DNA of 64,000 bases from an uncultured Gammaproteobacteria bacterium (GCA_964411255.1 CAYPKD010000005.1:5547-69546), one strand, 5' to 3'; positions 3,416 through 56,191 are shown, numbered from the stretch's first letter. The notes: generated by a model not told the origin, from the sequence alone. Numbers and translations are program-made.

Positions 3416-5275
3416 ATGAAGAAAAATTTAACAAAAAATGTAATTATATTCATTGTCATCTTTTTTGTGATTGCTGCAATTTTCAGTACGTATAACCTGT
3501 CCAACAAGGAAAAAGAAACTATTGATGTTCAAAAAATGATTCAGGAAATAGATGAAGAGAAAATTAAGTCAATTGAAGTGGCAGGCAGTGAAATATCATT
3601 AATTTTAAAAGATGATTCATTGCAAACACTAAAAAAAGAGCCAAATGAAAATTTCTCAGATTTGGTGAATAATTATAATATTGATAGGGAAAAACTATCT
3701 TTAATTTCAATTGAAGTAACAGAAGAGAGAGGGATGTCTTTTTGGTTAACCAGCGTTTTACCCTTTTTATTGCCGATTTTATTGATTGTAGCATTTATTT
3801 GGTTTATGATGCGACAAGTTCAGGGTGCAAATACAAAGGCAATGTCTTTTGGTCAGAGCCAGGCAAAGCAGTTTGACAGTAAGGGGAAAAATAAAACCAG
3901 TTTCAAAGATGTTGCAGGTGTGAGGGAAGCAAAAGAAGAATTAAAAGAAGTGGTTGAGTTTTTACGCTATCCAAAAAAGTTTTTAGATTTAGGAGCAAAG
4001 ATTCCTAAGGGTGTATTGCTGATGGGCCCTCCGGGTACAGGGAAAACATTGCTAGCAAAAGCTGTCGCCGGAGAGGCAAAGGTTCCATTCTTTACTATAT
4101 CAGGATCTGAATTTGTTGAGATGTTTGTTGGTGTGGGTGCGTCCCGGGTAAGAGATTTATTTAAGAAAGCAAAAAAGAATGCACCCTGTATTATATTTAT
4201 TGATGAAATTGATGCCGTTGGCAGACAAAGGGGAGCTGGTCTGGGTGGTTCGCATGATGAAAGAGAACAGACATTGAACCAAATTTTGGTTGAGTTAGAC
4301 GGATTTGATGTCAATACAAATGTGATCGTTATGGCAGCTACCAACAGGCCTGATGTTTTAGACCCGGCTTTACTTCGGCCAGGAAGATTTGACCGCAGAG
4401 TTATTTTAGATATGCCAGATATTCGAGATAGAGAAGAAATATTAAAAGTTCATGCTAAAGGCAAGCCATTAACGAAAAAAGTTAACATGAGAAGAGTTGC
4501 AGAAAGAACTCCGGGATTTTCTGGCGCTGACTTATCAAATTTACTAAACGAAGCGGCTATTTTAACAGCCAGAAAGGACAAGCATGAGATTGGTATGGAT
4601 GAAATACTTGATAGTATTGAAAAGGTTCTGCTTGGTCCGGAAAGAAAAAGTAAAGTACTTACTGTGGAAGAGAAAAAAGTAACAGCTTATCATGAAGCTG
4701 GCCATGCTTTAGTTGCCCATATTCAGCCAGGAGTTGATCCGGTGCAAAAAGTATCTATAGTTTCCAGAGGCCATGCAGCTGGGTATACATTGAAATTACC
4801 AACAAAAGACCGAAGCCTGCACAAGAAATCAGAATTTATAAGTGATTTGGCTGTGTTATTGGCAGGTCATACTGTAGAAAAGATAATTTTTGGCGAGGTG
4901 ACTACTGGCGCATCCAATGATTTGCAAAAGGCAACCGATCTCGCAAGAAATATCGTCACCCGATATGGTATGAGCGAGCATTTGGTGCCAAGAATATATG
5001 GGGAAAAAGAAGAATTAGTATTTTTAGGCAGGGATATACGGGAACAGAGAAACTATAGTGAGAAAGTAGCTGAAGTTATTGATAAGGAAATTGATTATCT
5101 AATAAGCGAAGCAGTAAAAACCTCTACTAATATTATTAATGATGAAAAAGATAAGCTTGAAAAGATAGTTAAACATCTTTTGGAACATGAAACGCTCGAA
5201 CAAGATGAGTTTATAAAGTTAATAGGCAAAAAAAAAGAATTAAACAAGAATGATAATATTGAAAAAAAAGAATAA
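3416..5275 (+). CDS. ftsH: ATP-dependent zinc metalloprotease FtsH
   Basis: N-terminal TM segments, Walker [12 protein letters not shown]+ core, HEAGHA zinc-binding motif. Confidence 0.97.
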
Positions 5276-6241: not shown

Positions 6242-7327
6242 ATGCCATTGTACAGAATTATTTTAAAAAAAGCATGGAAGATTAGTTTGAAAAATAAATG
6301 GCTTTGGTTTTTAGGATTTTTTGCTGCCTTTTTAAGTAATGAAAGTATTTATGAATCTATCATTGGTGGATTTACAAATAAGTTTCAGGGTCAGGATTTT
6401 GTTTTCCTGACTAAAGACTTTTTAGGTGTTGGGTTATTAGATATTTTTCAATGGTCATTTTTAAAATCATGGTGGACTTCAGGAAGTATTACTTTTACTT
6501 TTTTGTTATTGGTTACAATAGCTTTTATTTGTTTATTATTATTCTTTGTCTTTGTTTCAATTATTTCCCAGGCAGGATTGATCAAGTCAGCAATTGCCAT
6601 TGATGTAAAAAAAACATACAGCCTAAAAAAAGCTTTGCAGGATGGTATTGAGAAGTTTTGGTCTGTATTGGCGCTGAATGTGATTACAAAAGTCGTTTTA
6701 TTTGGAGTATTGGTGATTGTTGCATATTTATTTTCTGCATTAATAAAATTAAATCCAGTTAATTTTATTGATTACGTTTTGTATGTGATCTTTATTGCAT
6801 TATTGGTTTTTGGCGCATTGATAATATATTATTTAACAATTTATGGCACTGCTTTTATAATGCTCAGAGGAAAAAAAGTTTTTGATAGCTTAAGACTTTC
6901 ATGGCACATTTTTGTAAAAAATATATTGATAAATTTAGAAATGGCTTTGATTTTATTTGTGTTCGTAATATTGTTAACCATAGTATATTTAATTGTTCTG
7001 TTTGTATTAGGAACCCCATTAGTTCTGCTATACATGCTTTTAGGCTTTGCTGCAGCAGAAAAAGGGGTGATTATTGTCGCTGCTTTAGCTGTATTACTGT
7101 TTATTATTGTTACAGTATTTTTCGGAGCCTGGTATTCTACATTTCAAATCACATGCTGGGCTTTGCTATTTGAAGAATTGGTGTTGAAAAAAGGACGATC
7201 AAAGTTTCTAAGAGTTTTAGATGCGATTTTTGGTAAAAGTAAAAGGAAAAAATTAAACAAAGGGAAAATAAAAAAAATTGCCCGAAAGACTGTAAAGAAG
7301 GGTAAGAAAAGTTTAAGAAGAAGATAA
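6242..7327 (+). CDS. Polytopic membrane protein with Lys/Arg-rich C-terminal tail
   Basis: Multiple hydrophobic helices. Tail is KSKRKKLNKGKIKKIARKTVKKGKKSLRRR. No recognisable family. Confidence 0.8.
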   Translation: MPLYRIILKKAWKISLKNKWLWFLGFFAAFLSNESIYESIIGGFTNKFQGQDFVFLTKDFLGVGLLDIFQWSFLKSWWTSGSITFTFLLLVTIAFICLLLFFVFVSIISQAGLIKSAIAIDVKKTYSLKKALQDGIEKFWSVLALNVITKVVLFGVLVIVAYLFSALIKLNPVNFIDYVLYVIFIALLVFGALIIYYLTIYGTAFIMLRGKKVFDSLRLSWHIFVKNILINLEMALILFVFVILLTIVYLIVLFVLGTPLVLLYMLLGFAAAEKGVIIVAALAVLLFIIVTVFFGAWYSTFQITCWALLFEELVLKKGRSKFLRVLDAIFGKSKRKKLNKGKIKKIARKTVKKGKKSLRRR

Positions 7328-7371: not shown

Positions 7372-7418
7372 TCGTCAAAAGGTAAAAACGAATTCGAATT
7401 CGTTTTTACCTTTTGACG
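7372..7418. terminator. Near-perfect 23-bp-arm palindrome, probable bidirectional terminator
   Basis: CGTCAAAA(A)GGTAAAAACGAATTC|GAATTCGTTTTTACCTTTTGACG. It lies between convergent genes and overlaps the stop codon of the minus-strand methyltransferase. Confidence 0.6.
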
Positions 7419-8554
7419 GCTATTTTCCAAATTGTAATTCTTCGAACCAAATGTTGTCCTGGCCTTGAATAATCAAATTCATTGAGTAAATTATAGCCAA
7501 GCTGTTTTATATTTTCATCAATTGACGTATCGATTATTTGTTTTTTAGATTTTAATTTTGGAAAGATAAATACCACTATATGTTTAGATCCAAGCAATTT
7601 ACTAAATTTTTCAAAGGATTTTAAATATAAAAGCTGAAGTTCTTTTTTTATTTTATTTAAGTCTGCCTGATTTTCTTTACCAGTTAAGGGTTTGCCTAAA
7701 TATGGTTCAGTGACAATTGCTTGAGGTAAAAATTTTAAATCTTTTGCAGTTGCTTTGGTTATGTCTAGCGTTTTCATTTCAATATTTACAGTTAAATTAA
7801 AATTTTCAAGCAGCCAATCAATATTTTTTTGAGCTTTTAGAATAGTTGAAGCATTTATATCACTACCAAAGATGTTTTCATATCCTAATATTGCTGCTTG
7901 CTGCAAAATAGTGCCAAAACCGCAAAATGGATCCCAAATAGTTTTTGTTTTTTGTGGAATTAGATTAATCATCATTTGCGCCACTTTAGGCGGCAGCATA
8001 CCTATCTTGGGATCAAATTCTGGACGGCCATAGTCAAGCTTGTTCCAGAGCTCAAAGTCCTGAACGGCTAAGGTTTTACCAATTAAAAAAATTCCGCGTT
8101 GTTCAAAAATACAAAGCTCAATTCCCTGATCAATCAGCTTATTTTTTTTAACAACGACTGCGGTTAGGTTTTGCGTTTTCGGACTCACAAATCTACATGG
8201 CCGGCTTTGTTTAATAATTTTTTTTATTTCAATGCCCAGTTTGTTTATTTTAAGTTTTTGATTTGTATAGTCGCTTATTCCAAACTGGATCTTGTTTGTT
8301 TGTTTTAAATCAATCGTTTTGATGAGCTCGTTGGCATTGAGTCTCTGAATTTGGCCGATGATTTCACCGAATTTTATTTGACCGCCGAGTCTGTAAAAGA
8401 TTTTGTTATCTATTTTTTCTTTCGATTCAATAATAAAAAGCTCGTTTTGCTGCAAAATTTGCTTAAATTCAATTTTTGTTAAAAACAAAACGTTTTTTAT
8501 CTCAGCTAAAGATAATTGGGGTGTTTTTCCAAAAATAAAATAATATTTATGCAT
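7406..8554 (-). CDS. SAM-dependent RNA/DNA methyltransferase (UPF0020/Trm11-like)
   Basis: DPFCGFGTILQQAA (motif I) and VTEPYLG (motif IV-like). Start moved to ATG 8554 (MHKYYFIFGK..); the 50-aa upstream extension in the track looks non-coding. Confidence 0.8.
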   Translation of the reverse strand: MHKYYFIFGKTPQLSLAEIKNVLFLTKIEFKQILQQNELFIIESKEKIDNKIFYRLGGQIKFGEIIGQIQRLNANELIKTIDLKQTNKIQFGISDYTNQKLKINKLGIEIKKIIKQSRPCRFVSPKTQNLTAVVVKKNKLIDQGIELCIFEQRGIFLIGKTLAVQDFELWNKLDYGRPEFDPKIGMLPPKVAQMMINLIPQKTKTIWDPFCGFGTILQQAAILGYENIFGSDINASTILKAQKNIDWLLENFNLTVNIEMKTLDITKATAKDLKFLPQAIVTEPYLGKPLTGKENQADLNKIKKELQLLYLKSFEKFSKLLGSKHIVVFIFPKLKSKKQIIDTSIDENIKQLGYNLLNEFDYSRPGQHLVRRITIWKIAVKR

Positions 8555-8605
8555 ATATTTTATTGTATCATTTTTTTGATATTTTGATACTTTTATACAT
8601 ACAAA

Positions 8606-8737
8606 TAAAAGTCTGCGCCTATGCCATTTTACAGCAGAATGTTGAGGAGAGAGAGATTTGGTTTTGAATACGTTGTTACGTACCCTAGCCAAAAACATTC
8701 GCACTGTTATAAATTGGCAAAAAGACGCAGACTTTTA
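8606..8737. other. About 130-nt rod-like nested hairpin (four coaxial stems)
   Basis: Stems pair 8606-8617/8726-8737 (12 bp), 8637-8643/8694-8700, 8657-8663/8687-8693 and 8669-8673/8678-8682, with loop TGTT. Confidence 0.4.
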
Positions 8738-11134: not shown

Positions 11135-11458
11135 ATGGCAGAAATAATATTAACTGATGATAACTTCGAAGTTGAGGTTTTAAATTTTAATGGCCCAGTG
11201 TTGGTTGACTTTTATGCAGATTGGTGTGGACCATGCAAGATGCAAGGTCCGATTATTGATGATTTAGCTAAAGAGCTAGAAGGAAAAGAAGTAAAAGTTG
11301 GGAAACTGGATATTGATAAAAATCCAAGAACCGCGGAAAAGTATGAAGTGATGAGTATTCCTACCTTAGTTTTGTTCAAAGGCGGAGAAGTAAAAGAAAC
11401 TTTGCATGGAGTTCATAATAAAGATGATCTTAAAGCAAAATTAGAATCATTGATGTAA
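11135..11458 (+). CDS. trxA: Thioredoxin
   Basis: WCGPC active site, about 107 aa. Confidence 0.95.
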   Translation: MAEIILTDDNFEVEVLNFNGPVLVDFYADWCGPCKMQGPIIDDLAKELEGKEVKVGKLDIDKNPRTAEKYEVMSIPTLVLFKGGEVKETLHGVHNKDDLKAKLESLM

Positions 11459-11463
11459 TCCTG

Positions 11464-11486
11464 AGGGCTTGTATAGCCCTTTTTTG
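11464..11486 (+). terminator. Rho-independent terminator
   Basis: AGGGC-TTGTATA-GCCCT followed by TTTTTT. Confidence 0.6.
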
Positions 11487-11519
11487 TGTTGAAAATGTTT
11501 AATAATTCCCAATTTTCAT

Positions 11520-12509
11520 ATGACAGATAAAAATACAATTTATGATGTAATAATCATCGGTGCTGGCGCTGCAGGTTTGACAGCAGCCATTTATACTGGC
11601 CGAAGAGAATTGAAAACATTAATTTTGACAAAAGACATTGGCGGCCAGGCTGCGATGACTGATGAAATTGAAAATTGGCCTGGTGAAATTTCTATTTTAG
11701 GACCTGAACTAATGAATAAATTTAAAGCCCAAGCTGAAAAGTGGGGTGCAAAAATTGAATTTGCTGAAATAAAAGAGATTAAAAAAGAAAAAGATTATTT
11801 TGTACTACTTGCAGATGGAAAAGAATATAAAGCATTAACTATAATTTTAGGATTTGGACTTGAGCATAGGAAATTAGGAGTGAGCGGAGAGAAAGAATTT
11901 ACTGGAAAAGGAATATCATATTGCGCCACTTGTGATGGCCCATTATTTCGAGGGAAGACAATTGGTGTGGTTGGCGGAGGTAATTCAGCTTTGGATGCAG
12001 TTGAATATTTAGCAAAGCTGGCGGAAAAGGTTTATATGTTTATTAGAAAAGATACTTTTAGTCCAAATGCAGAGACAGTTCTTGTTGATACAATTCAGAA
12101 TTTGGAAAAACAAGGCAAAGTTGAAGTAATGTGGAACACAGAAGTAAAGGAAATAAAAGGAGAAAAATTAATGAATTCTGTGGAATTTGTTAATAATAAA
12201 ACGAATAAAACACAAGATTTAGAATTAAAGGGTTTATTTATTGAAATTGGCATGGTACCGCAGACAAAAGTGATTGAAGGCCTGGTTGATTTAGATGAAC
12301 GTGGACAAATAGTAATTGATCAGGGATGTAATACCAGCGTGCCTGGCATTTATGCTGCTGGTGATGTAACTATCAGTCCATATAAACAATTGGTCACTTC
12401 TGCTGGGGAAGGTGCAAAAGCAGCTTTATCAGCATATTCTCATATTCAGAAAACTCAGGGTAAAAAAGGCGGAGTTGGGAGTGATTTTACAAAAAAGAAA
12501 ATTATGTAA
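11520..12509 (+). CDS. trxB: Thioredoxin-disulfide reductase
   Basis: GxGxxG FAD motif (IIGAGAAG), CATCDG redox centre, GGGNSA NADPH motif. Confidence 0.93.
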   Translation: MTDKNTIYDVIIIGAGAAGLTAAIYTGRRELKTLILTKDIGGQAAMTDEIENWPGEISILGPELMNKFKAQAEKWGAKIEFAEIKEIKKEKDYFVLLADGKEYKALTIILGFGLEHRKLGVSGEKEFTGKGISYCATCDGPLFRGKTIGVVGGGNSALDAVEYLAKLAEKVYMFIRKDTFSPNAETVLVDTIQNLEKQGKVEVMWNTEVKEIKGEKLMNSVEFVNNKTNKTQDLELKGLFIEIGMVPQTKVIEGLVDLDERGQIVIDQGCNTSVPGIYAAGDVTISPYKQLVTSAGEGAKAALSAYSHIQKTQGKKGGVGSDFTKKKIM

Positions 12510-38151: not shown

Positions 38152-38762
38152 GATCCAAACAGGTCTATAAGCCGAATTCTGTCCCACCAGAGGCGGGGAT
38201 GATCATCTATCTAGTCCCGAGATTACTCTCGGGATCAAGCGAGCTACCAAACTTGCTCTTGCACCAGATAAGGTTTACCACCACCTAATGTTACCATTAG
38301 GCAAGAGAAGTATAAATTAAATAGTCACGTGAACCATTTAACTTTTTTCCTTCTCACTTTTCACCTTTCACCACTGCTACGCAGTGGAATTTCTAAATCC
38401 TAATTTTTTAAACTCTGAACAATTTTCAAATTTTCGAAAGGTTTTAAACATTAGAACATTTGAATTTCGAATTTGTTTAGAATTTCGTATTTCGAATTTA
38501 GCGCTTCCATTGCGCAACAATGGCTAGTATAGTCTCTGTGGCACTGGCTGTCGTCTAGGTTTATTAATTATCCTAGAATCGCCTGGGAGTTACCCAGTAT
38601 CATACCGCAGATTACGCTGATTAGCCGATTACGCAGATTGCAGGACTTTTTTTTATCAGCGTAATCAGCGTAATCTACGGTCAGGTGTTCGGACTTTCCT
38701 CCGGCCTACGCTTTTCACTTTGTTCAAAGCTTCGGCTGGCGATCATCCAACCTATTTGGATC
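38152..38762 (-). ncRNA. rnpB: RNase P RNA (bacterial type A core) with large insertions, about 611 nt
   Basis: Minus strand has GGAGGAAAGTCCGAACAC (CR-I/P4 5'), GTGCCACAGAGAC, GGTAAACC and ACAGAATTCGGCTTATAG (CR-V/P4 3'). P1 pairs GATCCAAATAGGT with ACCTGTTTGGATC; P2 pairs GGATGATC with GATCATCC. Confidence 0.88.
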
Positions 38763-44550: not shown

Positions 44551-46395
44551 TTACTTAGACCAAGCTCTTTTTGTTTTAATATACCAATTTGAGATATTAG
44601 CAAAACGATGAGCAGGAGTAATTATTTGATGAGATCCTGAACCATTAATTTTTTTAGTAACAGGATATGTATAGGTAGGATTAAATAGAAAAATAGCTGG
44701 AATTTCTTCACTGATAATTTTTTGAAATTCAATATATTTTTTTCCTCTTTCTTCATTTGAAGTGGTGTTTCTGGCTTCTTCAAGCAATTTATCAGCTTTG
44801 GCATTTCTAAAACAAGACAGGTTCAAACCTGGATGTTGGCATTGGCTGGAATGCCAAAATGGATAGGGATCAGGGTCGTAACCCAGTATTTCTCCGTAAA
44901 GCAAAATTTCATAATTTCTTTCTTTTATTAAACTTCGCTGAATTTCATTAGCATCTAAAATATTTAGATTTGTTTTTACTCCGATCTGCTGCCAGAACTG
45001 CTGAATTCCTTTGGCTATTTTTTCAAATTCTGCCTGATTAGGGGCGGTAATTGTTAATTCTAAAAATTTATCATCTTTTTTTCTAACTTTAAAAGGATAT
45101 AGTTCGTCTGAATTTTCATTAGAATAGTCAGTCGATTTCCAGCCGGCTTCATCAAGTATTTTTTTTGCTTCTTCGACATTAAAATTATATTTTTTTATAT
45201 CATCAGAAAATCCGATGTAGCCTGGTAAAATAGGACTCTCAATAGTAGAAGCAGATTCCTCATAGACAGAATTTTTTATTTGCTCTTTATTAATGGCAAA
45301 AGCAAGGCTTTGTCTGACTGCTTTGTTTTTCAAAAGATCGTTTTTATTTTGATTTAAAAACAATGCAATGTATTGAGGCAGGGAGAACTGCTGGAAGTTA
45401 ACGCTTCTGTTATTAAATATTTTTTCTTTAAATTGCCCAGGCAGATAACTAATGCTTTCAATGTTCTTATTATTCAAAGCATCAATGGCGCTGTTAAAGT
45501 CTGGATAAAATTTAAAAGTCAATTGATCAATAAAAGGTTGGTCGCCATGATATAAATCATTTTTTACTAAGGTAATGCTTTTTATTGCACCATTTCTTTC
45601 TTTGGTAAGAGATTTTATCTTATATCGGCCGTTGCCAATTGGCTTTAAATTATATTCAGCCAAATTCATGTTTTCAGCGGGAATGTCTATCAGTATATGT
45701 TCTGGCAGAATGCCAAATGACAATGACTCAATGAACAGAGCAAAAGGTTTTTCCAAAGTGAATTTGACAGTATAATCATCCAGCTTTTCTGTTTGCACGC
45801 CACTGAAATTAAAAATTAAAGGACTTTTCGTATTTGGATCCTTAATTCTATCTATGGTGAATAAAATATCATCTGCATTTATTTTTTCATTATCATCCCA
45901 GAAAAGGTCTTCTCTTAGATGAAATGTATACACTTTCTGATCTTCACTAATATCGTATGACGCGGCCATATCATTGACCAGGCCCTTGTCTGGCTCAAAC
46001 TTTAATAAGCCAGAAAATAAAAGATAGCTTAAATCCAGATCAACATCATTTGTCTGCGCCAAAATAGGATTTATATATTGAGGCGATCCGATCAATCCTT
46101 CAGTATATTCTCCGCCGGAAGCTGCGATTACATTTGAATTTATCCAATAAAAATTTATCCCAATACTGACGATGCTTAAAATAATAACGGTAGAAAGAAT
46201 TTTAATTAATATTGATTCTTTTTTTGAAAAGAATTTTTTTAGGTATTTAAGTTGCTTAAAAGATGGTAATTTTTTTTGTTTACTTAAATCCTGAACCAAT
46301 CTTTGATCCATTTTCATTTGCATTTGAACCTTTTTTAATCTAGATTGTTTCTTAGTGTTTGTTCTACTTAAAAAATTGTGAAAAGGATTATTCAC
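44551..46395 (-). CDS. ABC transporter substrate-binding protein, family 5 (peptide/nickel type)
   Basis: N-terminal TM anchor, SBP_bac_5-like length and composition. GTG start. Confidence 0.75.
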   Translation of the reverse strand: MNNPFHNFLSRTNTKKQSRLKKVQMQMKMDQRLVQDLSKQKKLPSFKQLKYLKKFFSKKESILIKILSTVIILSIVSIGINFYWINSNVIAASGGEYTEGLIGSPQYINPILAQTNDVDLDLSYLLFSGLLKFEPDKGLVNDMAASYDISEDQKVYTFHLREDLFWDDNEKINADDILFTIDRIKDPNTKSPLIFNFSGVQTEKLDDYTVKFTLEKPFALFIESLSFGILPEHILIDIPAENMNLAEYNLKPIGNGRYKIKSLTKERNGAIKSITLVKNDLYHGDQPFIDQLTFKFYPDFNSAIDALNNKNIESISYLPGQFKEKIFNNRSVNFQQFSLPQYIALFLNQNKNDLLKNKAVRQSLAFAINKEQIKNSVYEESASTIESPILPGYIGFSDDIKKYNFNVEEAKKILDEAGWKSTDYSNENSDELYPFKVRKKDDKFLELTITAPNQAEFEKIAKGIQQFWQQIGVKTNLNILDANEIQRSLIKERNYEILLYGEILGYDPDPYPFWHSSQCQHPGLNLSCFRNAKADKLLEEARNTTSNEERGKKYIEFQKIISEEIPAIFLFNPTYTYPVTKKINGSGSHQIITPAHRFANISNWYIKTKRAWSK

Positions 46396-46413
46396 ACAGT
46401 TTATTATTAGATT

Positions 46414-46629
46414 TTAAATAATAATTTGAAGTAATGAAATACCTAAAAATAATATAGAGAGGATTATAGTTAGAGAAAATAATGTTTTTTCAATTCCTCG
46501 TTTTGTCCTATAAACAGCGCTTGTACCGCCAAAAACACCGCTTAATCCAGATCCGCGGTTTTGAAGCAAGATGGTTACTGACAGTAAAACAGCAATAGCC
46601 AACTGTACAATTGTAATTATATTTTTCAT
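46414..46629 (-). CDS. secG: Preprotein translocase subunit SecG
   Basis: 71 aa, two TM, LLQNRGSGLSGVFGG motif. Confidence 0.85.
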   Translation of the reverse strand: MKNIITIVQLAIAVLLSVTILLQNRGSGLSGVFGGTSAVYRTKRGIEKTLFSLTIILSILFLGISLLQIII

Positions 46630-46769
46630 AAGTTTTTTGTAAGAAACGTCAAATGATATTTACATTATAATTGATAAGGACATATTTGTCAATCCCTGTG
46701 TTGTTAGAAAATTTTTTTGTACTCAGTTTCATTTTTCTATGCAGTAAAAAAATGCTATAATATAAATCA

Positions 46770-47465
46770 ATGAAAGAAGCTAATAAATTGTATAAAAACT
46801 GGTGGTTTAAGCCAACAATAGTTATTATTGGCATTCTTTTGATTATAATAATGATAAACGTAAAAGTCAATAGGCCATTTGAGGATTTTATAAAAAAAAT
46901 AAAACAGGCAGCAGTGCCAATTGAAAGCACTTATAATATGGATGAGATACGAACTGACAATGATCCGTATTTGGGGATTAAAGAAGCACCTGTTCAGATT
47001 GTGGAATTCGGAGATTTTAATTGTCCGTATTGCAAGGCTTCTGTATCAATAATGAGAGAAGTACTGCTAGAGTATGAAGATGAAGTTTTTTATCAGTTCA
47101 GAGATTTTCCAGTAGTATCTGAACAATCAATATTTTTGGCAATGGCAGGCAGCTGCGCTCATGAGCAAAATAAATTTTGGGCATTACATGATTTGCTCTT
47201 TCAAAGACAGGGAGAAATTAATGAACTCAATATTAATCAGTATGCGCAAAGCGTGGGCTTGAACACCAATCAGTTTAGTGAATGTATAAGTAGTGAAAAA
47301 TTTAAAAATGAAGCAATGGAAGATTTTTTAGCTGGAGATAAATTGCAGGTCAAGGGCACGCCAACATTTTTCGTTAATGGGAACAAATTCCAGGGCGTAC
47401 CAACAAAGGAAAATTTAAAAAGAATAATTGATCAGCTTATTTTAATAGAAGAAAAAAAACAATAG
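46770..47465 (+). CDS. DsbA-family thiol:disulfide oxidoreductase, membrane-anchored
   Basis: N-terminal TM, CPYC active site. TGcTATAAT ends 8 nt before the ATG and there is no SD. Confidence 0.85.
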   Translation: MKEANKLYKNWWFKPTIVIIGILLIIIMINVKVNRPFEDFIKKIKQAAVPIESTYNMDEIRTDNDPYLGIKEAPVQIVEFGDFNCPYCKASVSIMREVLLEYEDEVFYQFRDFPVVSEQSIFLAMAGSCAHEQNKFWALHDLLFQRQGEINELNINQYAQSVGLNTNQFSECISSEKFKNEAMEDFLAGDKLQVKGTPTFFVNGNKFQGVPTKENLKRIIDQLILIEEKKQ

Positions 47466-47472
47466 TTTATAT

Positions 47473-48024
47473 ATGAAAGAAATAAGAATACATGGGCGAG
47501 GTGGTCAAGGCACAGTTACTGCAGCTGAACTTTTAGCAATGGCAATTTTTTTTGATGGCAAATATTCTCAAGCTTTTCCAAACTTTGGAGTAGAAAGAAG
47601 GGGTGCGCCTGTAGAATCATATGTTAGAATTGGCAAAAAGCCAATCAGGCTGCGTTCCCAGATTTATAAGCCAGACTTTTTAATCATTATGGATTTAAGT
47701 TTATTAGATTTGCAGCAGGTTTTAGCAGGTACAAATAAGGATACGATTGCGCTGGTTAATAGCGAGGTAAAACGAAAATTAAAGGGAATGAAATCGTATC
47801 ATATACCTGCCACTTCTGTTGCCCTAGAAGCGATTGGCAGTCCATTGCTTATCAATACGGCATTAATGGCAGCCTTTATTACAATAACTAAATTGGTTGA
47901 TTTTGATTCATTGATAAAGGCAGTACAAGAAAGATTTTTATATAAGGGAGAAGAAGTAGTTAAAAAAAATATTATTGCAATGAAAGTGGCGAAAAAATTT
48001 ATGGAAGAAGAATACAGCTTGTAA
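47473..48024 (+). CDS. porC: 2-oxoacid (pyruvate):ferredoxin oxidoreductase gamma subunit
   Basis: IRIHGRGGQG..AFPNFGVERRGAP motif. Confidence 0.9.
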   Translation: MKEIRIHGRGGQGTVTAAELLAMAIFFDGKYSQAFPNFGVERRGAPVESYVRIGKKPIRLRSQIYKPDFLIIMDLSLLDLQQVLAGTNKDTIALVNSEVKRKLKGMKSYHIPATSVALEAIGSPLLINTALMAAFITITKLVDFDSLIKAVQERFLYKGEEVVKKNIIAMKVAKKFMEEEYSL

Positions 48025-48034
48025 TAACAAAATT

Positions 48035-48313
48035 ATGAAAAAACCATTACATACCAAATCAGGTACAACCAAAGATAATAAAACAGGTTCATGGCGGACA
48101 TATGTGCCAGTTGTTGATCATGATAAATGCATTGCCTGCGGAATTTGCGCTCGCGTATGCCCTGAAGGATGTGTTTTTCCGGTGGGAGAAAGAGTGTTAC
48201 AGAAAAATGCTAAAATTTTTTATGAACATGACTTGGATTATTGCAAGGGCTGCGGAGTTTGCGTTGAAGAATGCCCGGTTAAGTGTATAAAAATGGTTAG
48301 AGAGGAAAAGTAA
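48035..48313 (+). CDS. porD: 2-oxoacid:ferredoxin oxidoreductase delta subunit (2x[4Fe-4S])
   Basis: CIACGICARVCPEG and CKGCGVCVEECP cluster motifs. Confidence 0.9.
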   Translation: MKKPLHTKSGTTKDNKTGSWRTYVPVVDHDKCIACGICARVCPEGCVFPVGERVLQKNAKIFYEHDLDYCKGCGVCVEECPVKCIKMVREEK

Positions 48314-48438
48314 TTTAAATTTGAGAATAGTTATTTAGAAATCAGTATTAGAAATAAGATAATAAAAATAGTTTTTAAATACTAATTTCAAATTTCCATT
48401 TTCCATTACCAATTTTGATTTTCTATAAACTAATTTCT

Positions 48439-49539
48439 ATGAGAAAAAACATTGAGGGATCAGAAGCAATAGCTGAGGTGGTTAAATTAATACAACCAGA
48501 AGTGGTAGCCACTTTTCCAATTACACCTCAGACTCATATAATAGAACATCTGGCTAAATATAAAGCAGATGGTGAGGTTGGTTTTGAATATATAAAAACT
48601 GAAAGTGAGTTTGCAGCAGCCTCAGTTGTTTTGGGTGCCAGCGCGATGGGGGTACGGGTATACACCGCTTCCAGCTCACAAGGATTGCTTTTAATGGGCG
48701 AGGTTTTATATGACATTGCTGGCATGAGATTGCCCGTGGTTATAACTGCAGCTAATAGGGCGATTTCCGCGCCATTAAATATTTGGAATGACCATCAGGA
48801 TGTAATGCCTTTTCGTGATGCTGGCTGGATAATGCTTTTTGCTGAGACTAATCAGGAGGCGATGGATCTGCATCTTTTGGCTTTCAAGTTGGCTGAAAAA
48901 TTATCGCTCCCAGCAATGGTTTGCATGGATGGTTTTGTCTTAACCCACACTTATGAGCCGGTTGACATTCCAAAGTTAAGCGAAGTTAAAAAGTTTTTAC
49001 CTAAATACAGGCCAAAGAAAAATACATATTTAGATGTGATTAATCCGGTTAGCCTGGGTTGTTTTGCCACCCCAGCTGATTATCAGGAAATAAGACTGGA
49101 ATTACATGAGGATTTATTAAAATCAAAAAATCTATTCATTCAGGAAGCAAAGAAATTTAAAAAGATTTTTAAACGGAATTTAAATATTATTGATTATTAC
49201 GGCCCAAAAAATGCAAAAACTGTAATTGTCGCGATGGGAGCAGCTTTAGGCACCATTAAAGAAGCTGCAGATCAGTTAAATGAAAAAGGATCAAAGGTGG
49301 GAGTATTAAAAATATCAATGCTGCGGCCTTTTCCAAAAATGGAAATAAAACATTTATTAAAAGATAAAAAAAACGTGATTGTTCTGGATCGGGCAATATC
49401 ACTGGGTTCTGGTGGTATATTATATAATGAGGTTAGAAATGCTTTATGCAATACCAATGCCAAGGTTAGCGGAGCAGTAAACGGCTTGGGTGGAAGGGAT
49501 ATTACAATTGATTTTATTAAAAAACTTATTGTAGCGTGA
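48439..49539 (+). CDS. porA: 2-oxoacid:ferredoxin oxidoreductase alpha subunit
   Basis: GSEAIAE..ATFPITPQT N-terminus. Start moved to ATG 48439. Confidence 0.9.
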   Translation: MRKNIEGSEAIAEVVKLIQPEVVATFPITPQTHIIEHLAKYKADGEVGFEYIKTESEFAAASVVLGASAMGVRVYTASSSQGLLLMGEVLYDIAGMRLPVVITAANRAISAPLNIWNDHQDVMPFRDAGWIMLFAETNQEAMDLHLLAFKLAEKLSLPAMVCMDGFVLTHTYEPVDIPKLSEVKKFLPKYRPKKNTYLDVINPVSLGCFATPADYQEIRLELHEDLLKSKNLFIQEAKKFKKIFKRNLNIIDYYGPKNAKTVIVAMGAALGTIKEAADQLNEKGSKVGVLKISMLRPFPKMEIKHLLKDKKNVIVLDRAISLGSGGILYNEVRNALCNTNAKVSGAVNGLGGRDITIDFIKKLIVA

Positions 49540-49556
49540 TAATTTTGAGAATTGGA

Positions 49557-49633
49557 GGTTACGGAATTACGGAAGGTTACTGATATTACGGATATCCGTA
49601 GTATCCGTAATAATCAGTAAATCCGTAATCCCT
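49557..49633. repeat. 8-nt-periodic array with central inversion (TTACGGA words, then TCCGTAA words)
   Basis: GTTACGGA ATTACGGA AGGTTACT GATATTAC GGAT|ATCC GTAGTATC CGTAATAA TCAGTAAA TCCGTAAT. Centre at 49593/49594. Confidence 0.8.
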
Positions 49634-49640
49634 AATAAAT

Positions 49641-52118
49641 ATGAAAAAAATAATATTACTTACAATTCTTCTGGCATTAATTTGCACGTCTTTTTTAGTT
49701 GCTGCCAAGGTTAGTGCGTTTGAGCCTTTGGAAGAATTAATTCCAAGAATGAAAATCCCGATCCCGCAGCTTGAACCATTTCAAAAGCCTACTTATGTGG
49801 AAGAAGGAGGCAAGGGCTATATTTTCATTCCATGGATAGCCCAATATGTAAGTGCAATGTATAAATATGCTTTGGCTATTGGATCAATCATTGCTGTGAT
49901 TGCAGTTATGGTAGGAGGAATTTTATATTTAACCTCTGGCGGTGCGCCTGGCAGAATAGATCAGGGTAAAAATATTATTATTGGTGCTATTACCGGACTT
50001 TTAATTATAATTTTTTCTTATATCTTTTTAAATACAATTAATCCTGAACTGGTGAATCTTAAGGCTATTAGAATTCAAGCTGTAAAACAAGAAGCATTAG
50101 TGGTTGGAAATAATTGTAAGGATTTGGGAGCTGGATTTATAGTCAGAACTCCAAGCGGAGAAAAAGAAGGAACAACAGGTAATGCCCAGTATTTTGCATG
50201 CGGCAGTTCATATCCAGTAAGGTCAGGGGCAGCAGATGTGATTGTTCCCGAAGGTCAGAATTGCGATGGGGCGTATTGCCAAAAGGGTGCTTGCGAGACT
50301 GTTGATGGTAAACCACAGTGTGTGAATGCTTTGTTTACAGGAGAAATTACAGGAACGATGTTGTCCGGAGGAAGATATATTGATGAAGAATTTGAGCTTT
50401 GGGGCATGCCGGGAAATGGTCTTCTCGCAGCATTTCCAGTTCCATCTAAAGGACGATATGTTATTCCTTTAACAGCTGAATTAGAAAACAAACTAAATCT
50501 TGTAGACAAAGTGTATTTTCATCTACAGATAAATACCACAGGTGCTTATCCTTATTGGGCCTATAAAATTGGAAAGGAAGGAGTTGTTGATGTGGATTTG
50601 ATAAAAGAAACGGTAAAAAGTTATTTTAAAACTACAATAGATAGTGAATTTTATGCAGTAAAAAGTTATAAGGATCCAGAAAAAGCAATATGGGGATTCC
50701 CATACTCTCTAGATCAGATGTCCCCACTCAATCCTAGTTATGGTAATACCCCTTGTGATCCATGTTTTGTGATGCCTAGGAACGCTGAATGGCGATTTGA
50801 ACAGAGATTGCCTTGGTGTCAATTTTGGGAACCGACTGATCTTTTAGTAGCAGCAAAAAGTGGATCTGGAACAGTTGTAAATTTTAATATTGATGATTTT
50901 CCAGAATATCCTCAGTGGCCTCCACCGGTTCTAGTAAAAGAACTTCTATTAGATAATATTTCTGGATTACCTACGCCTGAATTTTTAAAGGGTGTTAAAT
51001 ACGAAGATATAGATTGGAATAATTTGGCTACAATCAATCCAGATTTATATCCTTATATGACTGATCCTGCTGAATTTTGTGTGGCTTCGAGTCAGTTAAC
51101 ATCTGCCTCTCCATTTCCTGGGACTCCATGTACTAGTCCGTTTGAGACAGCATTTGTTGCAGCTGATGATGCGAATGCGCCAGATGATTTAAAGGGGAAA
51201 ACATTATATTGTCGGCCTGCTGGTTATCAAGTCGGTTCAGGCACAGCAGTAGCAAAGTTTGAATGGACATTGGAAGATGCTAGGAAAGGAGATACGTGTG
51301 ATAATTTAAGTGTTGCTCAGAGTTTTCCAGGACAATTTTCAGCTGGACAAACAGCAAAAAACGATGGACAGCCATTTGTTAATTGTGAATCTGGCGTTAG
51401 TTGCCAATGGGTTAGCGGTGATGTAGGAGAATGTATAAATGGTTTAACATATTGTTTTGGGTTTTGTGAAGATGATGAAGCAGTATTGTCTATGGGAATT
51501 GGAGATCCATGCAGAGATGGCACCTGCCTTCCATATAAAGGATCAATAGAATTAAAATGCGTTTTAAATGGAAATGCCAGGGAATGTTTATTAGGCACAT
51601 GGGGATCATTTTGCAATACTGATAACGACTGTAAAGACGGTTTTGAATGTATTAAGCATGACACTACAACTACTGATGAAGTTCAATTTTGTGCAAAAAA
51701 GAATGCAGGAAGATGGCAGGCATGTGGAGATAAAATTAGCGGTAGTGGTACGAATTGTTCTTCTGGATTGGATTGTGAGCAAGTAGAATACGGAGAAGAA
51801 GGTGATAGTGACGCACAGTGTGATACAGGCCATTGGTCTGGAGCAGATACTAATAATTTGAAATTTTGTCTTGAAAGTACTTATGATGATAATAATCATG
51901 GGATCTGCTCCTGTTCAAATAATAGTAATTGTGCCAATACTTATGGTTGGGATTCTGGTGCAAATTATTGTAATTTAGCAGGTTATGAATATTGTTCTCA
52001 AAAAGTTGAAGGCGCATGGTGTAAAGTAGAGGGAAAAACAACACCAGACAATTATTTTTGCCATGGTGTAGGAGGTGAGTATGGAGTTTTACATCAAAAG
52101 ATTTCAACTAGTCAATAA
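49641..52118 (+). CDS. 825-aa secreted/membrane protein: T4SS-pilin-like (TrbC/VirB2-type) N-terminal module plus large Cys-rich ectodomain
   Basis: Signal peptide. IPWIAQYV..GGILYLTSGGAPGRIDQGKNIIIGAITGLLIIIFSYIFLNTINP. About 40 Cys counted by eye in the C-terminal 680 aa. Confidence 0.8.
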   Translation: MKKIILLTILLALICTSFLVAAKVSAFEPLEELIPRMKIPIPQLEPFQKPTYVEEGGKGYIFIPWIAQYVSAMYKYALAIGSIIAVIAVMVGGILYLTSGGAPGRIDQGKNIIIGAITGLLIIIFSYIFLNTINPELVNLKAIRIQAVKQEALVVGNNCKDLGAGFIVRTPSGEKEGTTGNAQYFACGSSYPVRSGAADVIVPEGQNCDGAYCQKGACETVDGKPQCVNALFTGEITGTMLSGGRYIDEEFELWGMPGNGLLAAFPVPSKGRYVIPLTAELENKLNLVDKVYFHLQINTTGAYPYWAYKIGKEGVVDVDLIKETVKSYFKTTIDSEFYAVKSYKDPEKAIWGFPYSLDQMSPLNPSYGNTPCDPCFVMPRNAEWRFEQRLPWCQFWEPTDLLVAAKSGSGTVVNFNIDDFPEYPQWPPPVLVKELLLDNISGLPTPEFLKGVKYEDIDWNNLATINPDLYPYMTDPAEFCVASSQLTSASPFPGTPCTSPFETAFVAADDANAPDDLKGKTLYCRPAGYQVGSGTAVAKFEWTLEDARKGDTCDNLSVAQSFPGQFSAGQTAKNDGQPFVNCESGVSCQWVSGDVGECINGLTYCFGFCEDDEAVLSMGIGDPCRDGTCLPYKGSIELKCVLNGNARECLLGTWGSFCNTDNDCKDGFECIKHDTTTTDEVQFCAKKNAGRWQACGDKISGSGTNCSSGLDCEQVEYGEEGDSDAQCDTGHWSGADTNNLKFCLESTYDDNNHGICSCSNNSNCANTYGWDSGANYCNLAGYEYCSQKVEGAWCKVEGKTTPDNYFCHGVGGEYGVLHQKISTSQ

Positions 52119-52124
52119 ATTTCT

Positions 52125-53039
52125 ATGCCAATAAAAAATAAATACCACACACCATATCAGCATTTAATAAATCCAGGACACACAGCCTGCTCTGGGTGTG
52201 GTTTGATTGTGGCAATGATTAATATTTTAGATGCGCTAGGTCCGAACACGATTGTTGCCAATGCCACTGGCTGCAGCGAGGTGACGACCAGCAAATATCC
52301 TCAGACTGCTTTTAAGGTGCCGTGGATCCATTCTATTTTTGAAAATACAGTGGCAGTGGCTGCAGGTATTGAAGCTGTGCTCAGAAAACAAGGAAAGGAC
52401 GATAATATAAATGTATTAGCCTGGGGCGGAGATGGCGCTATGTTTGATATTGGCCTTGGGTTTATGTCAGCCTCCTGGGAAAGAGAAGAAAATATTTTAA
52501 CAGTTTGTCTGGACAATGAAGCTTATATGAATACTGGAATTCAATCTAGCAGTGCCACACCAATAGATGCATATACCATGACCACTCCATCTGGAAGGAA
52601 ATCATGCGGTAAAAAATTAACTAAAAAAGATATGATAAAAGTGGCATTGGCTCATGATGTTCCCTATGTGGCTACAGCAACAATTGGAGATTTAGTTGAT
52701 TTATCTAATAAAATTAAAAAAGCATCCAAGGTTAAGGGGCCGAAGTACATTCAGGTTTTGACTACTTGTATTCCCGGCTGGAATGTTGAATCACATCTGA
52801 CAATTAAATTAGCCAGGCTTGCTCAGCAGACTGGCATTTATCCGGTTTTAGAATATGAGAAGGGCAAATTGATTTCTGCTAAAAAAGTAACAAAGGACAG
52901 GCCAAAAGTTGAAGAATATTTGAAACCGCAGGGAAGGTATAAACATTTGTTTAGCAAAAGCGGCAAGTGCAGAGGAGGAGTTGATATTATTCAAAAGCTG
53001 GCTGATGAGAATATTGAGAAATTCGGACTTCTCAAATAA
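52125..53039 (+). CDS. porB: 2-oxoacid:ferredoxin oxidoreductase beta subunit (TPP-binding)
   Basis: CSGCG, GGDGAMFDIG TPP motif. Starts 6 nt after the Cys-rich gene's stop. Confidence 0.9.
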   Translation: MPIKNKYHTPYQHLINPGHTACSGCGLIVAMINILDALGPNTIVANATGCSEVTTSKYPQTAFKVPWIHSIFENTVAVAAGIEAVLRKQGKDDNINVLAWGGDGAMFDIGLGFMSASWEREENILTVCLDNEAYMNTGIQSSSATPIDAYTMTTPSGRKSCGKKLTKKDMIKVALAHDVPYVATATIGDLVDLSNKIKKASKVKGPKYIQVLTTCIPGWNVESHLTIKLARLAQQTGIYPVLEYEKGKLISAKKVTKDRPKVEEYLKPQGRYKHLFSKSGKCRGGVDIIQKLADENIEKFGLLK

Positions 53040-53314
53040 CAAATCATTTTTTTGGTGGTCGTTGGTTGTTAGGCATGGCAGCCAGTATGATTTTTTGTTG
53101 TTAGTCATTAGACTTTCTAACCAATGACCTAGGCCCATAGACCAAACTGGCAGTCAAGACTTAAAACTAATTACCTAAAATAAATTTTTTTAAATTTACT
53201 AATTTGGGGTTCATCCCCTTTTTTTATTTTTTCTTTTTGCTTTTTGATTTCTTACCTCTTGCCACTTCCCAAAAAGTGTGATAAACTCTTTAGCAAGGTG
53301 TTTAAAGAATATTT

Positions 53315-56191
53315 ATGAATAATAATATCAAAATAAAAGGAGCTCGGGTCAATAATTTAAAAAATATTGATGTAGAGATACCCCGTAATAAGCTTGTAGT
53401 TATAACAGGACTGTCTGGTTCTGGCAAATCTTCACTTGCCTTTGACACAATCTATGCTGAAGGCCAAAGGCGTTATGTGGAGAGCTTGTCATCTTATGCT
53501 AGGCAGTTTTTAGATGTCCAAGATAAGCCTGATGTTGATGGCATTGACGGTCTTTCTCCTGCAGTAGCCATTGACCAGCGGTCAACATCCAGAAACCCGC
53601 GTTCCACAGTTGGTACAGTGACAGAAACCTATGATTTACTTCGATTATTATATGCCAGAATAGGTGTCCCTCATTGTCCAAAGTGTGGCAAAGAAGTTAA
53701 GAGACAGACGGTCGAGCAGATTGTAGATAAGATTTGGGCAATTGATAATAATGTCAATGTTACAGTTTTAGCACCAGTGATAAAGGAACAAAAAGGCAGG
53801 CATCATAAAATTTTTGAAGAATTACAAAAAGCAAATTTTTATCAGGTTCGTTTTGATGGCATTGTTTATAATTTAGAGGAGGTTTTAGAAATGCCGATTG
53901 ATAAGCAAAAAAAACATATAATTGAGGTTGTCATTGACAGGGTAATGCTTGATGGAGATAAAGAAGTAAAAAATCAGCTGCTTGAATCGGTGAAGATAGC
54001 CTTGGATCTGGGTAATGGCCTGTCAATAATCCAAAGGTCTGACAAGGATGAAGACCAGCTTTTTAGCCAATATTACAATTGTCCTGATTGCGGTATAAGC
54101 TTGCCGGAAATTGATTTAAGGAGCTTTTCATTTAATTCTCCAAATGGCGCTTGCCCAGAATGCAGTGGCTTGGGAACAAAGCAGGAAGTTGATCCGGAAT
54201 TAGTGATTTCAAATCCAAGGCTGACTTTAGCTGAAGGGGCAATCAAGCCATGGACGAAAATTTTTTCAACCCAGACAACAAATTGGCAGCTGTTGGAGGC
54301 AGTGGCTAAAAAATATAAATTTTCTGTAAATATTGCTGCAGAAAAATTGTCAAAAAAAGCAAAAGAAATTATTTTATACGGCACTGATGGAGATCTCTAC
54401 CAAATAGGAAGCAAATCTTTGCCATTTGAGGGTGTCATTCCATTTTTAGAAAAAAAATATAAATCAACAGACTCTGATTATATTCGAAAAGAAATTGAAA
54501 AGTACATGCGCATGCATATTTGTCCTCTGTGCGAAGGAAGAAGATTAAAACCAGAATCTCTTGCTGTAACAGTGGGCGGTTTGTCTATTTCTGAATTATC
54601 GAGCCTGCCAATTGAAAAAATTAAAATATTTTGTGATGAGGCTGTTCGCAGCGTAAAGGAAAAAGCAAAAAGACTACCAAAGGGGTATTCAATAATAAAA
54701 GAATCAGTTAATGAAAAAGCATTAAATATTGGACGGCAGATTTTTACAGAACTTGAGAGAAGATTGTTATATATTGAGGATGTGGGTTTAAGCTATTTAA
54801 CTTTAGACCGGAGCTCTGTTACTTTATCAGGCGGTGAAGCTCAAAGAATACGATTAGCCACTCAGATGGGTTCAAAGCTGGCAGAAGTAATTTATGTTTT
54901 GGACGAGCCAACAATTGGTTTACATCAGGCTGATATAAATAAATTAATACAAGCACTAAAAAAATTAAAAGCACAAAATAATAGCGTAATTGTAGTTGAA
55001 CATGATGAGACTACAATGCTTGAAGCTGATCAAATTATTGATATAGGGCCAGGTGCTGGAATTTACGGCGGAGAAGTAATTGCTCAGGGGTCTCCTGAGC
55101 AGATAAAAAAAGACAGCAATTCTTTAACAGGTAAATATTTATCTGGTAAATATAAAATTGAAGTACCAAAGATTGACAGAAAAAAAAGAGGCAATGGCAA
55201 AAGCATATCAATCAAGGGCGCATCTGCTAACAATTTAAAAAACATTAATGTTGATATTCCTCTGGGAAATTTCGTTTGTATTACTGGGGTATCAGGATCT
55301 GGAAAGTCAACTTTGATGACTGATATTTTATCAAAGGCACTGGCTAGAAAATTTTATCGGTCAAAAGAAATTCCATCTGATCATAAAAGCATTAATGGTA
55401 TCCAGCATTTAGATAAAGTTATTTCAATAGATCAAACTCCAATTGGCAGAACTCCACGTTCAAACCCGGCTACCTATACTGGGATTTTTACATATATCAG
55501 GGATTTATTTACACAAGTGCCTGAATCAAAGATTAAAGGTTTTGATGCCGGCAAGTTTAGTTTTAATGTAAAAGGCGGCAGATGTGAAGAATGTGGTGGA
55601 GATGGTTTTGTGAAAATAGAAATGCAGTTTTTGCCTGATGTTTATGTGACTTGTGATGAATGCAAGGGGAAAAGATATAAAAAAGAAGTTTTGGAAATAC
55701 ATTATCGGGGAAAAAATATTGCTGATGTTTTAGAAATGACTGTATCAGAGGCGAGAGAATTTTTTAATGACACGCCAATACTAAAGGAAAAATTAACCAC
55801 CTTAGAAGAAGTGGGACTTGGATATTTACAGCTTGGCCAGCCAGCCACTACTTTATCTGGCGGTGAAGCTCAGAGGATTAAACTGGCCACAGAACTTTCA
55901 AGGTATTCAACCGGTAAAACTTTATATATTTTAGATGAACCGACAACTGGCTTGCATTTTGATGATATAAAAAGATTATTGATAATTTTGAATCGATTGG
56001 TTGATAAAGGTAATTCAGTTTTAATTATTGAGCATAATTTAGATGTAATAAAGCAGGCAGATTGGATAATTGACTTAGGCCCTGAGGGAGGAGAAAAAGG
56101 CGGATATTTAGTGGCTGAAGGCAGCCCTGAGCAGATAGTGAAAATAAAAAAGTCTGCGACCAGCCAATATTTGAAAAAAGTTTTGAAATAG
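53315..56191 (+). CDS. uvrA: Excinuclease ABC subunit A
   Basis: Two ABC ATPase modules ([20 protein letters not shown], two LSGGEAQR) and zinc-finger Cys pairs. Confidence 0.97.

Follow-up and report, generated by a model that had tools for sequence, protein, structure and literature searches.

A gene for a predicted cysteine-rich surface protein between porA and porB in a Falkowbacteria-like clade of Patescibacteria

Introduction

Why should a gene for a predicted exported, cysteine-rich protein stand between porA and porB, the genes for the alpha and beta subunits of 2-oxoacid:ferredoxin oxidoreductase (POR)? The question is raised by a 64,000-nt stretch of DNA deposited as an uncultured Gammaproteobacteria bacterium (GCA_964411255.1, CAYPKD010000005.1:5547-69546; hereafter the window, with positions counted from its first letter), in which a DsbA-like gene, porC, porD and porA are followed by an 825-aa gene, here called X, and then by porB. 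The locus had been singled out in an earlier reading of the sequence alone (hereafter the original prediction). Here we report the identification of the same split cluster in related genomes and metagenomes, together with an analysis of the X protein, its DsbA-like neighbor and the RNA structures of the cluster. We read dsbA-porC-porD-porA-X-porB, with a probability of about 0.6, as one conserved transcription unit in which X would be a surface or host-interaction protein folded by DsbA, linked to POR through transcription and not as a POR subunit. This reading draws on the anatomy and conservation of the cluster, the single origin of the split, the co-occurrence of X with dsbA, the parity and conservation of the X cysteines, and the contrast in evolutionary rate between X and its neighbors.

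Patescibacteria, also known as the Candidate Phyla Radiation (CPR), need contact with host cells, are presumed to have no quinone-based respiratory chain, and are generally regarded as having no outer membrane. To our knowledge, almost none of their surface proteins is understood. An operon for an essential multi-subunit enzyme that is stably divided by an unrelated gene for an exported protein, and has been so since a single ancestor, is an unusual architecture; the split locus can serve both as a marker of its clade and as a test case for co-expression constraints in reduced genomes. A literature search turned up no account of the X family, of por genes linked to dsbA or of por operons that are split.

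Organization of the split por cluster

The cluster lies entirely on the plus strand and opens with a gene for a DsbA-like thiol:disulfide oxidoreductase of 231 aa (46770..47465). It continues with porC, encoding the gamma subunit (47473..48024; Pfam POR, 134.5 bits), porD, encoding the delta subunit, a 2x[4Fe-4S] ferredoxin-like protein (48035..48313; matches to Pfam Fer4 families), and porA (48439..49539; POR_N, 237 bits; PFOR_II, 109 bits). The porA product has 366 aa when counted from the conserved ATG at 48439; the open reading frame (ORF) has an earlier first start, a TTG at 48415. A spacer of 101 nt with a palindrome inside it separates porA from X (49641..52118), and porB (52125..53039) starts 6 nt past the X stop codon. 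The order proposed in the original prediction, including the inverted array before X, was thus recovered from ORFs and Pfam matches at each position, and the gene calls on the source contig agree with our ORF listing for the cluster.

The enzyme complement is complete. The alpha, beta, gamma and delta subunits carry POR_N with PFOR_II, TPP_enzyme_C, POR and 2x[4Fe-4S] domains, respectively, and the PorB translation retains its thiamine pyrophosphate (TPP)-binding and Fe-S cysteine motifs (GHTACSGCG, ATGCSE, GGDGA...NEAYMNTG and TCIPGW). The best NCBIfam matches are PorA_Arch for PorA (462.8 bits, under the 550-bit equivalog cut-off) and PorB for the beta subunit (337 bits, under the 405-bit cut-off), so that pyruvate is only a candidate substrate. 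In subunits, gene order and TPP and Fe-S motifs, the cluster resembles the porCDAB/porGDAB operons for four-subunit pyruvate/2-oxoisovalerate:ferredoxin oxidoreductases in archaea and anaerobic bacteria; unlike them, it and its relatives have one or two exported-protein genes between porA and porB, and dsbA before porC.

Several features suggest that the cluster is transcribed as a unit. A TATAAT box resembling a -10 element, read from the sequence at 46756..46761 (plus strand), lies 8 nt 5' of the dsbA ATG within the 140-nt divergent spacer between secG (minus strand) and dsbA (plus strand). It is a candidate operon promoter, which would give a transcript with a very short leader or none. At the other end, a terminator scan found a hairpin followed by a T-run 3' of porB (53061..53086, plus strand), where transcription likely ends; no other strong plus-strand terminator-like site lies in 46300-53400, and one weak match falls within porD. 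The X-to-porB gap lies in the range of 2-35 nt in each of the 12 related loci compared, and together with the lack of a strong terminator inside the cluster this strongly implies the co-transcription of X and porB that the original prediction had deduced from the tight junction. A candidate internal porB promoter at 51858-51899 was dropped: the scan returned 38 promoter-like sites, where 26.9 +/- 6.5 would be expected in DNA this rich in AT, and the matches have no value as evidence. The remark that X has no Shine-Dalgarno motif held, but not the contrast drawn with other accessory genes, since all seven genes from dsbA through uvrA lack one. GC content and skew run smoothly across X and its flanks, which argues that X is not a recent acquisition.

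The porD-porA spacer is AT-rich and is the one loose junction among the por genes, all others being tight. It measures 125 nt in the window (48314-48438), where its structure is weak (z = -1.7), and 124, 110, 203, 222 and 314 nt elsewhere; a spacer of 110-314 nt recurs in most relatives with a long X.

Conservation and origin of the split

A scan of one genome per GTDB species with PorB gave 80 loci. Of the 79 that come from other phyla, about 75 have porA next to porB, bearing out the statement that POR genes are normally contiguous, and dsbA occurs near por in none of the 79. The remaining locus (L005), whose PorB is 60% identical to that of the window, alone shows the order dsbA-porC-porD-porA-X-porB, with an 810-aa X ortholog and junctions of 5 and 13 nt around it. 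A word-indexed protein search found one full-length X homolog (P0002, 46% identity), encoded on 3-kb contigs (L002/L129) with porA upstream of X and porB 4 nt downstream.

An exhaustive hidden Markov model (HMM) search with the ectodomain profile of X against 1.84 billion representative proteins returned only five clusters at E <= 1e-10, namely the query, P0002, P0005, P0006 and P0007, and two weaker relatives, P0008 (E just above 1e-10) and P0010. The contigs of these proteins extend the same picture to different lengths, with porC-porD-porA-X around P0005 (L085) and porA-X-porB around P0006 (L086). The two P0007 loci (L088/L089), on contigs of 600-760 kb, have the wide synteny of the window from RNase J to uvrA: RNase J, SBP and SecG, then DsbA, porC, porD, porA, a 122-aa gene, X, porB and UvrA. 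In metagenome-assembled genomes named Candidatus Falkowbacteria (P0010/P0011; L092/L096), two X genes of 453 and 447 aa stand between porA and porB behind DsbA, porC and porD. At the P0008 locus (L091:1-2898), another cysteine-rich gene precedes an X ortholog of 753 aa, and uvrA comes straight after X without a porB; X genes thus occupy the same chromosomal site in at least one lineage without splitting por. The public labels of these syntenic relatives disagree, being 'uncultured Gammaproteobacteria' for L005 (CAZSER010000001.1), 'Candidatus Bipolaricaulota' for P0007 (HUT22636.1) and 'Candidatus Falkowbacteria' for P0010 (MBT7007093.1); the first two are probably mislabelled CPR bins.

A scan of 241 million JGI metagenome records with the family alignment and the anchor motif [IV]PW[IL]A[QNM]Y[VI]xA gave 31 loci. 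About 14 of them have dsbA-porCDA-X-porB, the X position being taken by one X-family gene or by two; in five, one to three X-family genes come immediately after dsbA and por genes are missing; and about ten consist of X-family arrays alone. Every split cluster with enough upstream sequence is headed by dsbA. Copy number and architecture of X vary by lineage, from one gene of 820 aa to two of 450 aa or extra copies after porB. In a deeper branch of the clade (L110, L121, L122, L123 and L124), porB has an X copy on either side: a short X (about 320-380 aa) separates it from porA, and another X-family gene comes after it at a distance of -4 to 8 nt.

In a neighbor-joining tree of PorB from nine split clusters and the 79 unsplit por operons of other phyla, 29 of 30 bootstraps place the split clusters in a single clade, and the split order persists down to about 52% PorB identity. 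These two observations argue for a single old origin, in agreement with the original view of an old, domesticated insertion; the split appears to have arisen a single time, in the common ancestor of a Falkowbacteria-like patescibacterial clade, and to have been kept since. The original prediction would be refuted, by its own account, if related genomes commonly shared the arrangement under an annotated function; the arrangement is indeed clade-wide, but it carries no functional annotation, the only naming being 'pilin' for one ortholog at NCBI.

Membrane anchor and ectodomain of X

The protein between PorA and PorB is, as first described, one with a signal peptide, a two-helix module resembling PF18895 (Pfam T4SS_pilin) and about 40 cysteines; we counted 39, of which the ectodomain holds 38 and the signal peptide the remaining one. 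Its hydropathy profile has hydrophobic segments at residues 1-26, about 73-100 and about 110-135. The first is a predicted Sec-type signal peptide (49641..49718), conserved in the family, with a putative cleavage site between KVSA and FE. The other two form a putative membrane hairpin at residues 65-135 (49833..50045), in which an amphipathic lead-in (IPWIAQY), a first transmembrane segment (TM1), a basic loop (GGAPGRIDQGK), a second transmembrane segment (TM2) and an LNTINPEL motif follow each other; AlphaFold2 (AF2) places helices at residues 64-100 and 104-133. PF18895 matches residues 70-132 with E = 1.9e-5, and X aligns at E = 8e-8 with a PF18895 protein (P0003, 38.6 bits to that model). 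Seven of the nine aligned X-family members match PF18895 at E <= 1 (best E = 2.9e-7), and homology of the X module with PF18895 is therefore likely.

All nine aligned members share a signal peptide, a short extracellular segment that sometimes holds a cysteine pair, an IPWIAQYxxAxYKY motif, a TM1 ending in GGxxYLTS, a short basic loop, a TM2 ending in LNxINP(E/D)L, and an ectodomain; their lengths range from 447 to 888 aa. Such an order would give X the topology of VirB2, with both ends outside and about 10 residues in the cytoplasm. The motif used for the metagenome scan marks a distinct PF18895-like sub-family. In relatives, the same anchor sub-family is fused to Peptidase_C39_2, Peptidase_M15_4 and NlpC/P60 domains (L106:5188-8274, L118:4648-7350 and P0003), and its attachment to extracellular modules active on the cell wall points to a general membrane-display module. 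The Peptidase_M15_4 fusion includes a Dickkopf_N-like cysteine-rich stretch, and several of these arrays lie downstream of a ClpB-like ATPase gene and two unknown genes.

The homology raises the possibility that X is a true pilin of a type IV secretion system (T4SS), or an adhesin at the tip of its pilus, in which the VirB2-like module polymerizes and the cysteine-rich ectodomain decorates the filament, along the lines proposed for variable pilin arrays of the VirB2-like kind in Patescibacteria. The closest kind described so far is found in CPR genomes, as arrays of highly variable VirB2-like genes with a mean identity of 25% that are thought to be host-adaptive (Quinonero-Coronel et al., bioRxiv 10.1101/2025.01.22.634366). 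Genes of the X family likewise form tandem arrays and, like these pilins, combine a signal peptide, two helices, a short basic loop and a terminal INP(E/D)L with restriction to CPR and very low identity; the PF18895 matches in the family and the 'pilin' name of one ortholog point the same way. X differs from them in having a 690-aa ectodomain with 38 cysteines in place of a small subunit of about 70-130 aa when mature, in standing inside a por operon beside dsbA and not near virB4, virB6 or virB3, and in its PF18895 score, which at 25.1 bits narrowly misses the gathering score of 26.6. A Pfam scan of essentially all ORFs of the window detected no T4SS domain, VirB4 and VirB6 included, and none turned up in the related loci inspected, including the regions upstream of the X arrays L106, L114 and L128, where the upstream genes are ClpB-like or of no known family. 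A domain of 690 aa on every subunit is hard to fit into the helical packing of VirB2-type pili, and the peptidase domains on the same anchor in relatives suit display better than polymerization. We consider a pilin function unlikely.

The predicted extracellular part of X (50046..52118) comprises 690 aa, close to the 680 of the original prediction, with a beta-rich membrane-proximal portion and a cysteine-dense C-terminal portion. Its cysteine spacing was said to be EGF- or knottin-like with many CxxxxC/CxxC-type pairs; true CxxC occurs only once (C372/C375), most spacings being x4 to x15, and the ectodomain had no significant match in Pfam, NCBIfam, a PDB profile search or Foldseek against PDB. 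The best cysteine-rich Pfam match among the nine members is an EB module in a single one (E = 0.021, not significant), the PDB profile search gave Dickkopf-2 alone (E = 0.031), and the more distant anchor-family relative L118 reaches 23.3 bits with Dickkopf_N, under its cut-off of 25. The structure model of X is poor, with a mean pLDDT of 32.7 from a two-sequence alignment and 55.7 from seven sequences, in the latter case exceeding about 70 only at residues ~160-300 and 640-710; Foldseek searches with this low-confidence model had a best E of 0.12, to uninformative AcrA-like helical hairpins, and none at E <= 0.001.

The number of cysteines is even in every extracellular compartment of all nine aligned members, with 38, 40, 38, 44, 38, 38, 50, 8 and 10 in the ectodomains and 0, 2 or 4 in the loop before the anchor. 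The ectodomain cysteines are 94-100% conserved among these proteins, while other ectodomain residues are 16-37% identical. Parity and conservation together are the signature of a disulfide-braced extracellular fold, with some 19 disulfides predicted for the X of the window. The X family thus appears as a small, clade-restricted family of membrane-displayed proteins on disulfide scaffolds.

Evolutionary rate of the ectodomain

Comparison of the window with its closest relative (L002/L129) separates the ectodomain from everything around it. PorB and UvrA are both 94% identical at the amino acid level (nonsynonymous divergence, dN, 0.027 and 0.035), as is, at 93% (dN 0.035), the X anchor (residues 1-150). 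Residues 251-825 of X are 37% identical, with a dN of 0.66, the fastest among nine neighboring genes (the next has 0.27) and about 20 times the rate of porB or uvrA. The divergence is spread over the whole 575-aa region. The ratio dN/dS is about 0.46, and synonymous divergence (dS) is saturated (0.6-2), so that positive selection is not demonstrated by these values and we do not claim it. The pattern fits either relaxed constraint on a cysteine scaffold or diversifying or cassette-like evolution. A surface that changes fast on a fixed cysteine scaffold is the behavior of a protein facing a changing outside partner, and the ectodomain may be what determines specificity for a host or a phage.

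Low constraint on loops would also be expected if X were a structural component of the envelope, such as a disulfide-cross-linked surface layer or a wall-associated protein. Abundant, conserved and even cysteines, a dN/dS below 1 and a place inside a constitutive core-metabolism operon all agree with such a role, and there is a precedent in Chlamydia, where the cysteine-rich proteins of a disulfide-cross-linked outer envelope depend on DsbA, with a DsbA/DsbB pair (PMC6752827, PMC5193440). Both kinds of bacteria depend on a host and combine a dedicated DsbA with surface proteins rich in disulfides, which in the case of X are predicted. They differ in that CPR cells are generally held to have no outer membrane, X has no sequence relationship to the chlamydial proteins, DsbA and its presumed substrate share one operon, and no DsbB/VKOR is found locally. 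Moreover, the X family is very rare and confined to one clade, and its copy number and architecture vary among lineages in a manner unusual for an essential structural layer. We regard an envelope component as improbable.

Extreme ectodomain divergence between close relatives could alternatively mark the target of a diversity-generating retroelement (DGR) or a recent mobile or selfish gene, the more so as the 122-aa gene between porA and X in L088 matches Pfam 23S_rRNA_IVP/bAvd. That gene belongs, however, to TIGR02436 (124.6 bits) and scores only 24.9 bits with the DGR Avd equivalog, whose cut-off is 80. Neither a reverse transcriptase (YxDD and Pfam scans) nor a template-repeat-like copy of any part of X was found in the window, and the divergence extends over 575 aa, where a DGR target would vary within a short C-terminal stretch. 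The synteny and the tree with its single origin point to an old, fixed gene, in line with the continuous GC content and skew. The DGR hypothesis is largely refuted on these grounds, and mobility of any recent kind is highly improbable.

Stem-loops in the porA-X spacer

The inverted array noted before X is a genuine feature of the window, though not of the arrangement as a whole. It is an imperfect palindrome of 86 nt (49551..49636) with 45-nt arms that are 78% complementary, formed by four TTAC(G/T)GA units and four inverted copies, and it is the longest inverted repeat in the 64 kb. The predicted stem has a minimum free energy (MFE) of -39.2 kcal/mol (z = -6.8), matched by none of 200 shuffled sequences; it stops 4 nt short of the X ATG and carries no U-tract. 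In four lineages the porA-X site holds a stable stem, and the sequences of these stems are unrelated. The lineages are that of the window; L002 (z = -3.4); L101, with a nested hairpin at 3517-3570 (-29.7 kcal/mol, z = -6.6) unrelated to the window palindrome; and L088, with a stem of about 20 bp. Other lineages have unstructured spacers of 2-30 nt. We read the stem-loop of the window as a lineage-specific RNA element within the operon, probably acting on processing, stability or the tuning of translation. An Rfam search with it gave one sub-threshold match, to a plant miRNA precursor, of the kind expected of a generic hairpin. Alignment of the window hairpin with the stems of L088 and L086 was not convincing, and we claim no homology among them.

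The L088 stem has a different content. At L088:7576-8000, and also in L089, L090 and L100, the 122-aa TIGR02436 gene, which encodes a four-helix bundle of the '23S rRNA intervening sequence protein' type, is bracketed by an inverted repeat of about 20 bp that closes around the ORF as a stem in the MFE fold, at the same site as the window hairpin. This is an element resembling the intervening sequences (IVS) of 23S rRNA, located in a protein-coding operon.

DsbA and the link between X and POR

The DsbA-like protein at the head of the cluster has a CPYC active site, a GTPT cis-Pro loop and an N-terminal transmembrane segment. It exceeds the Pfam cut-offs for Thioredoxin_4 (107.7 bits) and DSBA (71.7 bits) and falls far below those of the NCBIfam DsbA equivalogs, which indicates a divergent DsbA subfamily. 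It also evolves fast, with 30% identity to the L005 ortholog compared with 49-76% for the por subunits. The suggestion that this oxidoreductase serves the folding of X gained support from its position in front of all split clusters that reach far enough upstream and of the X arrays in the five loci without por. The latter indicate that the DsbA-X link is the more general one and the link to por secondary, and the position of dsbA suggests a dedicated folding partnership with X. The two proteins would offer a concrete enzyme-substrate pair for the study of oxidative folding in organisms presumed to have no quinone-based respiratory chain, and raise the question of what re-oxidizes DsbA. Thioredoxin and thioredoxin reductase genes, a cytoplasmic reducing system, adjoin at 11135-12509 (plus strand) of the window; a DsbD-like membrane partner for the exported DsbA was not seen in the 64 kb.

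We propose that transcription would start in the spacer between secG and dsbA and run through porB. X would be exported by Sec, lose its signal peptide and insert its two-helix hairpin into the cytoplasmic membrane, where the co-encoded, membrane-tethered DsbA would oxidize the 38 ectodomain cysteines to about 19 disulfides. More tentatively, the fast-changing exposed surface may then meet an outside partner, such as the host envelope, a phage or another surface ligand, or join the cell's own envelope. In evolutionary terms, an X-family gene from a dsbA-associated tandem array would have become fixed between porA and porB once, in the clade ancestor, most simply by duplication or insertion from an adjacent array into the porA/porB junction.

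A stronger claim would make dsbA-porCDA-X-porB a functional unit, with the expression and oxidative folding of a fast-diversifying host-contact protein hard-wired to POR. Attachment or host recognition could then be co-controlled with the use of host-derived pyruvate, or the redox state of POR and ferredoxin could be linked mechanistically to extracellular disulfide formation, and the recurring porA-X stem-loops might set the ratio of the operon's two halves. The long retention of the gene order with tight junctions accords with this, as does the exclusive occurrence of dsbA beside por in split clusters. In CPR, ATP synthase genes have the pam pilus operon as a neighbor (Troman et al., bioRxiv 10.64898/2026.03.03.709456), another case of a CPR-specific surface structure tied to core energy metabolism; Pam pilins, however, are Ig-like proteins of the donor-strand-exchange type, with chaperone-usher-like partners and no relationship to X, and their genes neighbor the metabolic operon without being interleaved with it. 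Against functional coupling, the predicted cytoplasmic portion of X amounts to about 10 residues, X occurs with dsbA but without por in five loci and without either in about ten, and the X ortholog of L091 leads to uvrA with no porB between them. The chemistry is also opposed, POR yielding reductant and DsbA needing oxidant. Functional coupling to POR is, in our view, unlikely.

The reading of X as a DsbA-folded surface protein with a transcriptional link to POR meets several difficulties of its own. No DsbB or VKOR for DsbA was found by Pfam scans among the window ORFs, a result that could equally be cited for redox coupling to POR. The 101-nt spacer with its very stable stem could partly uncouple the expression of porA from that of X, and persistence of the order to such low PorB identity could reflect more than hitch-hiking. 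Fast evolution of the ectodomain may be due to relaxed constraint and not to diversifying selection, and the AF2 model of X is poor. These points weigh against our preferred reading.

Other features of the window

The remainder of the 64 kb holds core genes, among them rpoC, ftsH, infB, trx/trxB, gdh and leuS. An RNase P RNA gene on the minus strand (38152-38758; RF00010, 139.6 bits) measures 607 nt against a model of 367 positions, which suggests one or more large insertions. At 7373-7418, a perfect palindrome of 46 nt with 23-nt arms, 100% complementary and without a loop, lies at the convergent 3' ends of two ORFs (6242-7327, plus strand; 7406-8704, minus strand), probably acting as a terminator in both directions or as a site of protein binding.

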